Shown: positions 43,873 to 49,067, numbered from the stretch's first letter. The stretch: 64,000 bases of DNA from Promethearchaeota archaeon (GCA_016839745.1 JAEOTS010000122.1:1-64000), one strand, 5' to 3'. Notes: a model not told the origin generated them from the sequence alone. Program-made: numbers and translations.

Positions 43873-44730
43873 TTACAGCTTAAAGTGGTTTTTATAGGTA
43901 AAGAATGTGTTTTGGAGTAAAAAGCTTACTGTCATCGGTCCAACACCCCCCGGATTTGGAGTAATCCAGGAGCACTTGTCAAAAACTCCTTGATAATCAA
44001 CGTCTCCACATGTTTTTCCATTTACTTTACTGATACCCACATCTATTATAACCACACCTTCTTTTATTTTTTCTTTAGTGATGAAGTTTGGTTGACCGAC
44101 AGCGGTTATTAAAATGTCTGCATTCATAATGTAATCATTTATATTTACCGTTGATGTGTGACAAATTGATACTGTTGCGTTTCTTTTTAAAAGCATGAAA
44201 AATAATGGTTTTCCAACTAAATTTGATCGGTTTATAATAACAGCATGTTTTCCCTTGATTTCTATATTATAGTACTCTAGAAGCGCTATAATCCCTTTTG
44301 GAGTACAAGGCACGAGATCTTCATTGTAGTCAAACAATTTGCCCCTATTGATTGGATGAAGCCCATCTACATCCTTTAGAGGACTGATTATTTCATTAAA
44401 ATCTTTAGTGAAAGGTTTTAATTTTTTTGGAAGAGGTTGTTGCAATATTATCCCATGAATGGTGTTATCTGCGTTTAACCTTTCAATTTCATTTATTAAC
44501 GCTTCTTTTGTAATAGCTTGCTTTAAATTTACTAAAATTGATTCAATTCCAATTTCAGTGCACCTTCTTCTTTTTATGTTTAAATATAATTCCGACGCAG
44601 GATCATTACCAACTAGAACACCCGCTAATTTCGGTTTTACACCAGTTTTTTCTGAAATCAATTTTATTTTCTTTTCTAATTCAAAATTTAATTTCTGTGA
44701 TAATTCTTTACCATCTAATATTTTTCCCAT
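43873..44730 (-). CDS. folD: Bifunctional methylenetetrahydrofolate dehydrogenase/cyclohydrolase
   Basis: KDVDGLHP, PCTPKG, RSNLVGKP, IDVG, PGGVGPMT. Confidence 0.95.
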   Translation of the reverse strand: MGKILDGKELSQKLNFELEKKIKLISEKTGVKPKLAGVLVGNDPASELYLNIKRRRCTEIGIESILVNLKQAITKEALINEIERLNADNTIHGIILQQPLPKKLKPFTKDFNEIISPLKDVDGLHPINRGKLFDYNEDLVPCTPKGIIALLEYYNIEIKGKHAVIINRSNLVGKPLFFMLLKRNATVSICHTSTVNINDYIMNADILITAVGQPNFITKEKIKEGVVIIDVGISKVNGKTCGDVDYQGVFDKCSWITPNPGGVGPMTVSFLLQNTFFTYKNHFKL

Positions 44731-44843
44731 AATAATCTTGACTTTTCAAGTGATAAACTTAATTTTAATCAAATATATGTAAAACAAGGTATTCATTGAA
44801 ATAAATAAGTATTATTATATGCTTATTAAATGATAAAAAAAGT

Positions 44844-45953
44844 TTAAATTCTTCTCCTACGCAAAATTAAGTAAACAACTAATACGATTACTCCTATAAC
44901 TGTAAGTACAATAATCAAGATTAAAAAATTAAGCTCGACCATGAAAATATCTTCGTTCAATAAATCTAGCGATCCAAGGATTTGTAAAATTTTGAAAGCA
45001 GAATAGGATGTACTAATAGAAGAGAGTCTTTGATTGATATCTTCATTCCAATCACTAAAACCACCATCGAGAAAACTTTGATGTTCTAATACCCAATTGG
45101 AAGTTGCGACTCTATTTAATTCAGTCTCGTCTATTAATCTAATTCCTTCAACGCAGAGGTATGTACTACTTAATAATGGAGTTTTAGCGTATAAATCAGG
45201 TAAATAACCACCGTAGTGTTCAAGATTATTAGAGTCTCCGATATAATGTGATTTAAAGTAATTTAAAGTTGCAGTTTGATTAGCTAAATCATTTATTGAA
45301 CCTAATTCACTAAATAAATTAACCGCAAAATATGTAGTAGTCAATGTAGATGATAAAGATTGGTTTCCTCCATACCCTCCGTCTGTATTATTGCACGATA
45401 ATACCCAAGTTTTATGGATTGTTTCATTTTCAACCGGTTCATCGATTATGGTAAATATATTATATATATAGTAAGTTGAAGCCATGTTTGCAGCATTAGA
45501 TATGTTTGTAGGACTAAAGCCACCTCCGATCTGAATGGTGTCATTTATGTACGTATAAATTTGATCACGTAAAACTGAATTTAAAGAAGTTTCTAGGGAT
45601 TCCAGCATGTTTAATGTTTCTAAAAGATAGTATATTTGGTAGATATCAATTTCTCCTGTCTCAAACATAGTTCGAATTTGTTCTTGTAAGTAAGCCTTTA
45701 AACCAGTTATACCAACGCTTCTAATCTCCTCAAATAAGACTTCAATAAGATAAGCATTATAAAAGTCCAAAATTTCTATTGCGTTAGCTGTGTCTTGGGG
45801 TGATATGCCAAAACTTTCGTTTGCTTTTTGATTTTCGTAAATAAAATCGACTAAATGACTCTGACGGGTTTTTGCTAATGCTATTGGTGTAATACTTAGC
45901 ATTAAAGTAATTAATAATAAAGCAAATGTTAAATTCCGAACTCTGTTTTTCAA
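44844..45953 (-). CDS. Prenyltransferase/squalene-oxidase-repeat (alpha/alpha barrel) protein with signal peptide and C-terminal TM anchor
   Basis: Repeats GGGFS, WVLSCNNTDGGYGG, GGYL, WVLEHQSFLDGGFS, each followed by (S/T)T-x-[YS]; N-terminal signal peptide; TM plus RRRR tail. Confidence 0.75.
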   Translation of the reverse strand: MKNRVRNLTFALLLITLMLSITPIALAKTRQSHLVDFIYENQKANESFGISPQDTANAIEILDFYNAYLIEVLFEEIRSVGITGLKAYLQEQIRTMFETGEIDIYQIYYLLETLNMLESLETSLNSVLRDQIYTYINDTIQIGGGFSPTNISNAANMASTYYIYNIFTIIDEPVENETIHKTWVLSCNNTDGGYGGNQSLSSTLTTTYFAVNLFSELGSINDLANQTATLNYFKSHYIGDSNNLEHYGGYLPDLYAKTPLLSSTYLCVEGIRLIDETELNRVATSNWVLEHQSFLDGGFSDWNEDINQRLSSISTSYSAFKILQILGSLDLLNEDIFMVELNFLILIIVLTVIGVIVLVVYLILRRRRI

Positions 45954-46099
45954 TTAAAAAAAAACCCCAATCTGGTTTTAACTAAATTTTAATTTTTTAA
46001 ATTTAACGTGTAATTAAAAATTAACGATCTTTTGAGTTTTTAGTTAGATTATCATGTAAACTATAATAAAAATTAGAAATAAATTGATCAAAGTTTGAT

Positions 46100-47626
46100 C
46101 TAAAAAATATCGCTAATATTCTTATATAACGCAGCACTATTGGATTGAAATTCTTCGTGGGTTACAAATAGATTTTGAAAGCTCGGCAAGCTCCCGAGTA
46201 TACTAGCGCCATTAAATATAGCAAACTGTAAGTTTTCTGGTACGAAGAATCTTACTACCTCTTCCGATGACTCGTAAAAACCAGAAAATTCTCTAGCAGG
46301 TGGAGTATTCTTAACGATCTCAGGAGGTACCTCTGGTATCTCTGTTAATGGAAAACTTTTTCCACAATAAGGACAAAAAATCGAATCTTCATCTTCAACT
46401 TTCTTTTTGCAATTAGGGCAAATTCTCTTTCCTTTTTCACTTTTAGAATTTGTGCCTAGTTTAATGCTTCCAATTGAAAGCTCGGGTAAAATCATTCTAC
46501 CATTACAAGACGGACAGAACTCTTTACCATCAGTTAGATCTACTAACGTACCACAATGTGGACAAGTATCTTCCTTCTTCTGTGATTTTTCTTTTAATTT
46601 CATTTTTTGCCTTTCTTCCCGTGAGGCTTTCACAATCTTAGGTTTTGGTATTTTTCCCAGCTGTGGGATTAATTGTGCTAGTTCAGATCGTAGTCTCTCT
46701 TCAAATCCAGAATATGAAAGATTTCCACCCGATATCATAATATGTGAAAGAAGATCGCTCCAATAATATTTGTCAATTCCTTGCAAGCTATTTATAACCG
46801 CTTGTGGAATGTTAAGGATATTATACCCTAATAAGTTAGGTTTAAATAATACTTCTGGTGCTTCATGGAAGATATAATTTGGTATATTAATATTAGATCC
46901 ATCTGGCATTGTAAAACTAAAACTATCATCTAACTTTGGAGGGTGTTCAGGATCTAAAGCGAAAAAGCAGTTTTTTTCTTTGATATCTTTAATTATTTCG
47001 TCGACTGCACTTGATTCAATATTAATACCTTCTCTCATAAGTAAATTCTTTAAATGTTGATTTACATCTGTACCAGCTAAAGTTAATTTTTGCACCGATT
47101 GATCAACAATTTCTCCACTCAGAATGGGGCATACCCAAGTGATTCCATCTCCACTCTCTATAACTGTACCAGTTGTTAACCCTACACTAAATAAAGACAG
47201 TATAGGGGTAGGAATCATTATTAAACTTCTGACTTTATGGGTTTCATATAAAACTCGAGCAATATATTCCTTAGTCTCCCGCTGGACAAACGGAGGTTCA
47301 GTGTATAGCACTGGATAATTAGTAAGATTTTCAATTCTTAATAGCGAATAGAAAATATAATTTAAGATTTCATAATAATCGTTCCAATCCATTATTGCAC
47401 CCCGTTCGATAGGGTGTTTTATTTTTAGAACTCCTCGCATTTTTGAAGCGTCTGATCCGATATATATATTTCGGGCGCCAACATCAACCATTACAGCTTT
47501 ATATTTTTCAGTACCGGTGATGGTGGGGAAAACAAACCTAGGACTAGGCTCTCCCGCGAAACCTATCTTAGTGTAGGCTGAACCAATGTCGACGATAATC
47601 GGGGTTCCCGGTAATGGTACTGCCAT
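46100..47626 (-). CDS. Actin-family (actin-related) protein with inserted double zinc-ribbon domains
   Basis: VDIGSAYTKIGFAGEPSPRFVFPT, HPIERG..DW, ESGDG, LAGTD, IKEK, PDG, PEVLF, SGGN, GASILGSL; insert with four CPxC. Confidence 0.92.
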   Translation of the reverse strand: MAVPLPGTPIIVDIGSAYTKIGFAGEPSPRFVFPTITGTEKYKAVMVDVGARNIYIGSDASKMRGVLKIKHPIERGAIMDWNDYYEILNYIFYSLLRIENLTNYPVLYTEPPFVQRETKEYIARVLYETHKVRSLIMIPTPILSLFSVGLTTGTVIESGDGITWVCPILSGEIVDQSVQKLTLAGTDVNQHLKNLLMREGINIESSAVDEIIKDIKEKNCFFALDPEHPPKLDDSFSFTMPDGSNINIPNYIFHEAPEVLFKPNLLGYNILNIPQAVINSLQGIDKYYWSDLLSHIMISGGNLSYSGFEERLRSELAQLIPQLGKIPKPKIVKASREERQKMKLKEKSQKKEDTCPHCGTLVDLTDGKEFCPSCNGRMILPELSIGSIKLGTNSKSEKGKRICPNCKKKVEDEDSIFCPYCGKSFPLTEIPEVPPEIVKNTPPAREFSGFYESSEEVVRFFVPENLQFAIFNGASILGSLPSFQNLFVTHEEFQSNSAALYKNISDIF

Positions 47627-47784
47627 GCTTGATCAATTAAATTTTTTAAAGGTTTATGTTCTTTTATATAAATCTCTAAATTTAAGTATTAGTACAATAA
47701 TATAATAAAATGATTTTCCTTAATTAAATAATTTTTCCAAAAGAGGAAAGATAAGTTAGAATATTTTAATTACCAAGATCCATA

Positions 47785-48207
47785 TTAATCGATTTTTAAA
47801 GATTTTTCTAGCTTCTTTTCAATTCCTTCTAATTCGGTTAGGAGATTTTTATAAGTTTTCAGTAAATACTTGCCCCAATCGTTTAGTTTAACCCATCCCC
47901 CTCCACCAAGACCTCCTTTTCTAGTTTCTACAGGTGTTTTTCCTGATCTTTCTTTTATTTTATTTAAAATGTTCCACGCATATTTGTATGAATAACCGCA
48001 CTCTTTTGCTGCTTTTGTTAAAGATTTGGGCTCGTTGTTATTAGCGTCATCAATACATTCAAGTAAATTAGCCCATCCTGACCCTAAAATATTTTTACGA
48101 CCCTCATCTTGAAATTCTAGCCAGAATTTGATTCCAAAACTAATTTTACCTTTTAATTTTTCGATATTAGAGTTATCCTCCAATTTTTCACTAGAAGGTT
48201 CTTCCAT
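47785..48207 (-). CDS. ModE-family winged-helix regulator
   Basis: SLTKAAKECGYSYKYAW...VETRKGGLGGGG. Confidence 0.85.
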   Translation of the reverse strand: MEEPSSEKLEDNSNIEKLKGKISFGIKFWLEFQDEGRKNILGSGWANLLECIDDANNNEPKSLTKAAKECGYSYKYAWNILNKIKERSGKTPVETRKGGLGGGGWVKLNDWGKYLLKTYKNLLTELEGIEKKLEKSLKID

Positions 48208-48308: not shown

Positions 48309-49067
48309 ATGAAAATGTTTTTTCCTGATACAGAGAATTCAGTAAAATTAGGACGAGAAGTTACTGAAGATATTTATCATTTTGAAGAGAACCCGATGTT
48401 GGATTGTAATCAGTTTATAATTAACGACAAAAGTACTGGTGAGTTGGCGCTATTTGATTCTGGAAATGGACTTTCTTTAAAGAGTTTGTTCGAAGGTATG
48501 AATAATCTGGGTTTAGATTATAGAAAAATAACTAAAGTATTTCTAACTCACGAACATGTAGATCATGTTCTGGGCTTGTACCCGCTGATAAAAACTCTAA
48601 AAAGTAATCCCCCTGAATTATATGCTTATGGTGAAACAGCGAAAATATTAAGAGAAGGCATTGAATCAAAGATTTTTCCCGGTAATCTCGGGATCAGTCC
48701 AAAAATGTTTGGTTTAGAAATAATTCCTTTAGATGTCAAGATTCTGAATATTCATGAGACAATTAACATCGGTTCAGAATTCACTTTTAATATTTATTAC
48801 ACTCCAGGTCACTCTCAAGGTTCAATTTGTTATTATGAATCTAATAAAAAAATCTTAATTCCTGGAGATTTAGTATTTACGGGAGGGAGTTTTGGAAGAT
48901 ACGATTTTCCAGGGGGATCTCTGGACGCTTTAATTGAATCGATAAAATTTGTTAATAATTTGGATGTCAAATATTTACTTCCGGGTCATATGGGGATAAG
49001 CGATAACGGAAACCCGCAAATTGACTATTCCTATAAAATGGTTCAGTCAATAAAGAGCTTTTTTTAA
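48309..49067 (+). CDS. Metallo-beta-lactamase-fold hydrolase
   Basis: THEHVDH, TPGHSQG, GDLVF, PGH. Confidence 0.92.
   Translation: MKMFFPDTENSVKLGREVTEDIYHFEENPMLDCNQFIINDKSTGELALFDSGNGLSLKSLFEGMNNLGLDYRKITKVFLTHEHVDHVLGLYPLIKTLKSNPPELYAYGETAKILREGIESKIFPGNLGISPKMFGLEIIPLDVKILNIHETINIGSEFTFNIYYTPGHSQGSICYYESNKKILIPGDLVFTGGSFGRYDFPGGSLDALIESIKFVNNLDVKYLLPGHMGISDNGNPQIDYSYKMVQSIKSFF

Follow-up and report, generated by a model that had tools for sequence, protein, structure and literature searches.

The locus analysed here raises the question of what happens to an actin when a pair of zinc ribbons is built into the middle of its fold, whether such a protein is real and, if so, what it might do. 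The Lokiactin cytoskeleton shapes the protrusions of Asgard archaea and underlies their motility, and to our knowledge only profilins and gelsolins have so far been tested as Lokiactin regulators. The gene lies within 64,000 nucleotides of DNA from a Promethearchaeota archaeon (GCA_016839745.1 JAEOTS010000122.1:1-64000), a stretch that we refer to in full as the window, and its product is called the zinc-ribbon Arp, or ZnR-Arp.

The insert and the actin fold that carries it

The gene, the two parts of its actin core and the segments of its insert were delimited as follows, in the order in which they occur in the protein:

46100..47626, minus strand: whole ZnR-Arp gene, encoding a 508-aa actin-family protein, with the stop codon within the span
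46661..47626, minus strand: N-terminal part of the actin core (residues 1-322), with subdomains 1, 2 and 4 and most of 3; helix K is its last element
46640..46666, minus strand: insert entry (residues 321-329), rich in Pro and Gly; P321 to L323 are kept in 31-35 of 36 sequences, and G324 and P327 are invariant
46568..46639, minus strand: Lys-rich linker (residues 330-353), predicted to be disordered (pLDDT 45-48)
46499..46567, minus strand: zinc ribbon 1 (residues 354-376), with C355, C358, C371 and C374; pLDDT ~78
46424..46498, minus strand: inter-ribbon linker (residues 377-401), variable (family consensus 0.45) and predicted to be disordered (pLDDT 42-48)
46355..46423, minus strand: zinc ribbon 2 (residues 402-424), with C403, C406, C418 and C421; pLDDT ~75
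46256..46354, minus strand: return arm (residues 425-457), Pro-rich and then acidic; E446 is near-invariant and F447 invariant
46103..46255, minus strand: C-terminal part of the actin core (residues 458-508), from strand 15 back through subdomains 3 and 1

Residues 9-339 matched the Pfam Actin family (PF00022) with an E-value of 3.6e-71 and 240.4 bits (cut-off 27). Pfam Actin was matched again, over a further segment, C-terminal of the insert. When the protein was compared with the PDB by phmmer, residues 5-322 and 458-502 aligned to actin and the ~135 residues between them were unaligned. The best PDB score was that of an archaeal 'HC1 actin' (251 bits). Eukaryotic actin gave 233-237 bits and Arp1 gave 232 bits, so that these scores indicate no specific kinship to Arp1; judged in this way, ZnR-Arp is no nearer to any solved Arp than to actin.

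An AF2 model based on a 132-sequence alignment had a mean pLDDT of 84.5, with most of the core above 90. Values were 56 in the D-loop block (residues 41-50), 86-95 in the C-terminal core up to residue 500, and 76 over the final eight residues. Foldseek, for which the query was a first AF2 model (36 close orthologues, mean pLDDT 65) that was later superseded by the 132-sequence model, matched many actin chains with a probability of 1.00 and target TM-scores of 0.75-0.83, which identifies an actin fold. ZnR-Arp is a member of the actin/Arp superfamily by its profile, its fold and its nucleotide-site motifs. A preliminary description of this DNA, made from the sequence, had stated that the actin fold resumes intact past the insert, and a TM-score of ~0.8 to actin bears this out.

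The insert comprises ~135 aa (residues 322-457) and lies in subdomain 3, where it separates helix K from strand 15. It houses four CPxC motifs, beginning at residues 355 (CPHC), 371 (CPSC), 403 (CPNC) and 418 (CPYC), which form two copies of the spacing C-x2-C-x11/12-C-x2-C. Within residues 355-425, Zn_ribbon_3 (PF13248) scored 41.5 bits against a cut-off of 27 and DZR (PF12773) scored 29.5 bits against a cut-off of 27.3. The two Cys4 sites are predicted to be zinc-binding modules. Their Cys pattern is the same as that of the generic ribbons of PF13248 and PF12773; what distinguishes the ribbons of ZnR-Arp is that they sit inside an actin fold. The preliminary description had reported an internal insert with four CPxC motifs in an actin, and Pfam, the PDB alignment and a motif scan all confirmed it. 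Its boundaries for the insert, 46262-46663, proved accurate and correspond to residues 322-455, and its reading of the insert as a built-in double zinc-ribbon module agrees with the scores above the Pfam cut-offs and with eight invariant Cys.

In the AF2 model, pLDDT was 74-81 across both ribbons and below 50 in the linkers, which are ~25 residues each. Short strands were predicted at residues 327-329 and 447-450, and these two strands probably pair to form a stalk from which the ribbons are carried. Family consensus values were 0.81 and 0.73 for the ribbons, 0.81 for the actin core and 0.45-0.57 for the linkers; by this measure the ribbons are about equal to the actin core in conservation and the linkers fall below it. 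The Lys-rich character first ascribed to the linker holds for the protein in the window, but it does not extend across the order, since the linker is acidic in L. ossiferum and the basic charge is limited to the window's own family-level group.

Several results bear on whether the insert is real. More than 120 proteins with the Actin plus zinc-ribbon architecture were found in a search of 5.8 billion proteins, at 61-94% identity. Orthologues were nearly always 501-511 aa in length, and the few shorter ones look partial. All four CxxC motifs were present in 121 of the 121 family proteins retrieved, and each of the eight Cys was invariant in a 36-sequence alignment (61-87% identity). In addition, the insert is covered, with no indels, by contigs from three independent metagenome studies. 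Its upstream junction is spanned by an X5 contig (46475-46714) and its downstream junction by an X5 contig (46030-46331) and an X6 contig (46200-46417). Because orthologues keep the insert and independent contigs bridge both junctions, it is neither a misassembly nor a product of chance. The preliminary description had named absence from reads or orthologues as the result that would speak against the insert, and both the contigs and the more than 120 orthologues carry it.

Two contig 'joints' with short sides (22 and 42 nt) were also seen; they were single contigs with 85% likeness and were taken to derive from other organisms. One contig of 233 nt derived from an RNA library falls within the insert (46454-46686, with four differences), which is too little to claim transcription. 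An intein or mobile element was considered as the source of the insert and ruled out on the grounds of its fixed position, its core-like conservation and the lack of any such Pfam or NCBIfam match in the gene. When the same genome was searched for paralogues of the module or a possible donor, only generic ribbon matches were returned (E 0.005 or worse), and phmmer comparison of the ribbon module with the PDB gave chance-level matches to the Cys pattern only, the best being the PHD finger of WSTF (E 0.011). A look-up of insert residues 340-456 in the ESM Atlas returned no usable match.

Relatives, distribution and gene neighbourhood

We found five actin-family genes in the genome that contains the window (G000), ZnR-Arp among them. 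The Lokiactin pair (loci L001 and L002) is:

C80:8995-10107, plus strand: Lokiactin gene, 81% identical to the second Lokiactin
C190:3316-4422, minus strand: second Lokiactin gene

The further Arps of this genome are a protein of 371 aa (C5) and a divergent protein of 398 aa (C167) whose subdomain 2 has an insert. Identity between ZnR-Arp and the two Lokiactins of this genome is 37-38%. In a maximum-likelihood tree, built after removal of the insert columns from a set without named eukaryotic Arp1-Arp10 sequences, the ribbon-bearing proteins formed a single clade (SH-aLRT 100) apart from the Lokiactins. The base of this tree was without resolution and the sister group of the clade was not resolved. 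Both the level of identity and the separate clade uphold the earlier assignment of this protein as an Asgard actin-related protein, and the phylogenetic comparison with Lokiactin that had been recommended at the same time succeeded in separating the clade but not in placing its sister group. ZnR-Arp departs from conventional actin and Lokiactin in its catalytic residues, in its clade and in the loss of an intact 321-325 loop.

The distribution of the family was assessed in 400 Asgard species genomes (GTDB species set). Full-length matches were present in ~128 of the 135 genomes of the window's own family, its own genome counted, and ZnR-Arp was also found in three more families within the same order. 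Genomes of other orders in the class gave no full-length match (0 of 7), and no ZnR-Arp was found in other Asgard classes, where the best matches were at the level of Lokiactin (~1e-70, residues 5-325 only). A search for the architecture in other Asgard genomes, as the preliminary description had advised, locates it across one order only, and among these 400 genomes ZnR-Arp is limited to this single order of Lokiarchaeia. It is near-universal in this order, to which Ca. L. ossiferum and, probably, P. syntrophicum belong. An orthologue of 552 aa is encoded by a closed genome, probably that of P. syntrophicum MK-D1. Database names of family members include 'zinc ribbon domain-containing protein' and 'actin-related protein'. 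According to NCBI labels, close orthologues (62-73% identical) are placed in Thor-, Heimdall-, Hod- and Hermodarchaeota, and the GTDB genomes of these groups are without the family; the NCBI taxon labels on those MAG orthologues look unreliable or loose.

Published RT-qPCR primers for UYP44711.1 match the ZnR-Arp orthologue locus of one closed genome (G138) exactly. Because of this exact match, we identify G138 as Ca. Lokiarchaeum ossiferum and the ZnR-Arp family as one published 'ARP'. In the main-text passages of Rodrigues-Oliveira et al. 2023 (PMC9834061), UYP44711.1 is one of three L. ossiferum 'ARPs' and is placed among ARPs in a tree, and RT-qPCR found its transcript at a level severalfold lower than that of Lokiactin; the same main-text passages make no mention of the insert or of a function for UYP44711.1. 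A transcript level below that of Lokiactin points to sub-stoichiometric expression, which fits a regulator.

UYP44711.1 is an orthologue that resembles ZnR-Arp in its insert site, its ribbon 1 and its neighbours (HTH, toroid and FolD), with 40% identity over residues 10-506. It differs in being 499 aa long, in having an acidic linker and no ribbon 2, and in keeping the His at 161. Throughout the order-wide alignment, ribbon 1 was present in all orthologues examined, and ribbon 2 was missing from two sampled orthologues, those of G138 (L. ossiferum) and G279. Ribbon 1, universal among family members, is probably the essential binding module.

A paralogue of 385 aa without the ribbon module was observed in another genome of the window's own family (G196, contig C37, L015:2473-3630, minus strand) and is 48% identical to ZnR-Arp. 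It keeps the entry motif, and its chain rejoins immediately ahead of strand 15. Since this paralogue is nested inside the ribbon-bearing clade, it represents a secondary and clean loss of the ribbon module. Such a natural insert-free protein provides a ready comparison for ZnR-Arp. The gene adjoins that of a Ras-like GTPase (379 aa) whose C-terminal extension is long.

Three neighbouring genes recur with ZnR-Arp and have the following positions in the window:

47785..48207, minus strand: ModE-like protein, 140 aa, N-terminal winged-helix type, upstream of ZnR-Arp
44844..45953, minus strand: toroid protein, 369 aa, downstream of ZnR-Arp; PF00432, E 4.8e-19
43873..44730, minus strand: FolD (methylene-THF dehydrogenase/cyclohydrolase), fourth in the conserved cluster

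Together with ZnR-Arp they form a co-directional cluster (43873-48207, minus strand) in the order ModE-like, ZnR-Arp, toroid and FolD, which is found in four families at 24-60% identity. The toroid gene is the most conserved neighbour, adjoining ZnR-Arp in 9 of 12 other loci (tblastn; four families, 24-44% identity). The HTH (ModE-like) gene adjoins ZnR-Arp in 7 of these 12 loci and FolD is in the same locus in 7 of 12 (tblastn). The upstream protein of 140 aa matched TIGR00637 with an E-value of 6.9e-14, which is under the family cut-off, and ModE in the PDB with 7.8e-07. The toroid protein, taken to be extracellular and held at the membrane, combines a signal-like N-terminus, an alpha/alpha toroid of the prenyltransferase type and a C-terminal membrane anchor. 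Adjacency held at such divergence suggests co-regulation and is no proof of binding.

A divergent gene of the metallo-beta-lactamase fold (48309-49067, plus strand) is kept within the window's own family. The spacer between ZnR-Arp and the ModE-like gene (47627-47784, 158 bp, read on the minus strand) contains a TTTATATA box ~40 nt ahead of the ATG, and no clear Shine-Dalgarno sequence was found in it. ZnR-Arp may be transcribed from a promoter of its own, with a short leader; the indication is weak in a genome of ~31% GC.

The nucleotide site and the filament faces

The nucleotide site of ZnR-Arp is in part that of an actin. Residues D11, G13, K18, G156, G158, K213, E214, G301 and G302 are kept in 36 of 36 family members, D157 varies among distant members, and at the level of sequence the phosphate-1, phosphate-2 and adenosine motifs are all present. 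At the positions of actin Q137, H161, D154 and H73, which drive or sense ATP hydrolysis and place the attacking water, ZnR-Arp reads T, W, E and R, respectively. Family members have T, S or A in place of Q137, and the H161 position is W in the window's own group and variable in distant members. We infer that ZnR-Arp would bind ATP and hydrolyse it poorly.

Standard actin numbering was taken by alignment to a fungal actin of 375 aa, in which P321 of ZnR-Arp corresponds to actin P322 and the match to actin resumes at V327. The actin 321-325 loop (Pro322 and Met325) touches Pro243-Gly245 of the neighbouring subunit in the same strand, and disease mutations that impair polymerisation cluster in this loop (PMC7247010). 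Since the insert replaces a longitudinal contact loop, it alters the barbed-end face and does not decorate an inert outer surface. The preliminary description had put the insert on the 'outer face of subdomain 3', and this has to be corrected: by alignment and by the published contacts, the site is the 322-325 loop, a longitudinal contact (PMC7247010).

The filament faces were compared by a permutation test on position sets, in which Henikoff-weighted family sequences were scored for identity to Lokiactin. The contact-residue lists are small and were chosen by us, in part from the literature. For 11 literature-defined contacts of the barbed face, identity to Lokiactin was 0.12 compared with 0.36 for the core (permutation P ~0.013; P ~0.008 with BLOSUM). 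The changes include Y169 to Q/E/K, I341 to N/K/R and F375 to S, by which the D-loop pocket of the barbed face becomes polar, and R290 to W, which is invariant within the family. On the pointed face, identity to Lokiactin was 0.46 against 0.36 for the core, a difference that is not significant (P ~0.09). The D-loop has an actin-like length and has K39, Y40, M44, D46, V47 and K/R50 in common with Lokiactin, and P243-D244-G245 (the PDG loop) is invariant in the family. Lateral contacts did not differ from the core (0.34 versus 0.36).

The groove residues F146, G149, T151, L477, L480 and S482 are the same in every family member aligned and differ from those of actin. An invariant groove at the barbed end implies that this face has been selected for something, possibly a ligand or a contact specific to the family.

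ZnR-Arp shares with Lokiactin and actin the fold, the glycines and charges of the nucleotide pocket, and the lengths of the D-loop, the plug and the PDG loop. It is unlike them in the substitution of Q137, H161, D154 and H73, in its diverged barbed contacts and in the 135-aa insert that takes the place of the 322-325 loop. In this family, an actin paralogue may have become a protein that no longer builds filaments, with one stacking face remodelled and a metal-binding docking module grafted onto it. This would be a parallel to the making of Arps in eukaryotes, reached by a different solution.

Possible roles of ZnR-Arp

We tentatively propose, with somewhat less than even confidence, that ZnR-Arp, as a subunit with poor hydrolysis, docks on the barbed end of Lokiactin and blocks or anchors this end through its ribbons. 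ZnR-Arp would bind ATP and hydrolyse it slowly, and its pointed-end face, with the Lokiactin-like D-loop and PDG loop, would dock onto a Lokiactin filament at the barbed end. No further subunit could stack on it because the barbed face of ZnR-Arp is remodelled and occupied, and the filament would be ended or capped. The tethered ribbons would then attach the capped end to some partner. Several points count against capping. The likeness of the pointed face to Lokiactin falls short of significance, and the groove of the barbed end is invariant within the family. A stalked loop that exits sideways could still allow stacking, conservation within the family is no different for the barbed and the pointed face, and Arp3 tolerates a small insert at the same loop and still templates a filament.

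Eukaryotic Arps offer partial precedents for a protein of this kind. Arp11, which has an actin fold, has the special task of terminating the short Arp1 filament of dynactin; it caps the pointed end, whereas the role inferred for ZnR-Arp is at the barbed end. Arp5 and Arp8 of INO80 carry large inserts that bind partners. Arp3 of the Arp2/3 complex reportedly has an insert in the same loop as ZnR-Arp, on the barbed-end face; the Arp3 insert is short and has no metal site, whereas that of ZnR-Arp is ~135 aa long with two ribbons. The face that has diverged in ZnR-Arp is the barbed one, the face from which Arp3 templates, and the loop insert of Arp3 is compatible with a daughter filament templated from the barbed end of the Arp (PMC9295785).

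A more specific version of capping, in which the ribbons tie capped barbed ends to an assembly at the membrane or surface that includes the neighbouring toroid protein, is a long shot. If it were true, the filament-end anchor would be a primitive link between cell surface and cytoskeleton, independent of eukaryotic cappers and adhesion adaptors.

It is conceivable, although we consider it rather unlikely, that ZnR-Arp is instead a non-filament Arp, one that serves as a stable ATP-bound subunit in a larger complex where the ribbons bind nucleic acid or another subunit; we give the same low weight to the corresponding proposal that the conserved barbed-end groove holds the helix of a partner and not a D-loop. 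Nuclear Arp4 and Arp8, which bind the HSA helix, are the model for such a subunit. The replacement of the hydrolysis residues agrees with it, as do the groove residues, which are invariant in the family yet unlike those of actin. The gene immediately upstream, on the same strand, is of the ModE winged-helix type, here and in 7 of 12 other loci, and would suit a role near nucleic acid, but an adjoining regulator gene is most simply the regulator of the operon. Similarly, the ribbons have weak sub-threshold matches to RNA-polymerase subunit P, Spt4 and YacG-type ribbons, but these matches to nucleic-acid-binding ribbons are all far under their cut-offs. The actin-like length and Lokiactin-like residues of the D-loop and PDG loop also argue against a complex subunit, as a non-filament Arp would have no obvious need of them.

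We regard as distinctly improbable that ZnR-Arp polymerises, alone or with Lokiactin, into a ribbon-decorated filament that anchors or bundles itself, with the stalk leaving sideways. A D-loop, hydrophobic plug and PDG loop of actin-like length, a highly conserved core throughout and lateral contacts no more diverged than the average of the core (0.34 versus 0.36) are what such a polymer would show, and the existence of an insert-free paralogue indicates that the core is viable alone. However, the barbed contacts are the most diverged and the D-loop is Lokiactin-like, a mismatch that argues against homotypic stacking, and the contact loop itself has been replaced by the insert. With Q137 and H161 gone, the hydrolysis clock used by dynamic actin filaments is also missing.

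Least probable is that the insert is no docking module but a redox sensor that switches ZnR-Arp in these strict anaerobes, with iron centres like those of rubredoxin, or redox-sensitive zinc, at the Cys4 sites. Of the four knuckles of ZnR-Arp, three are CPxCG (or CPxCN) as in rubredoxin and there is a weak match to an archaeal rubrerythrin-like domain (E 0.0038), but this match is far under threshold (16.9 bits against a cut-off of 32), both sites belong to generic zinc-ribbon Pfam families above their cut-offs, and the aromatic core of rubredoxin is not evident.

If ZnR-Arp does cap or anchor the ends of Lokiactin filaments, a defined role in regulation would be known for an archaeal Arp for the first time. 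Its function can be tested directly, because a cultivated species already expresses the orthologue. The preliminary description knew of no characterised example of this protein, and our literature searches likewise found no paper that reports zinc ribbons in any actin or Arp of Asgard archaea, and none that gives these ARPs a function. The gene family itself is already in databases and in one published tree. Among unnamed metagenomic proteins, we also observed a tandem pair of complete actin domains in P0129, P0130, P0135 and P0157 (742-895 aa).
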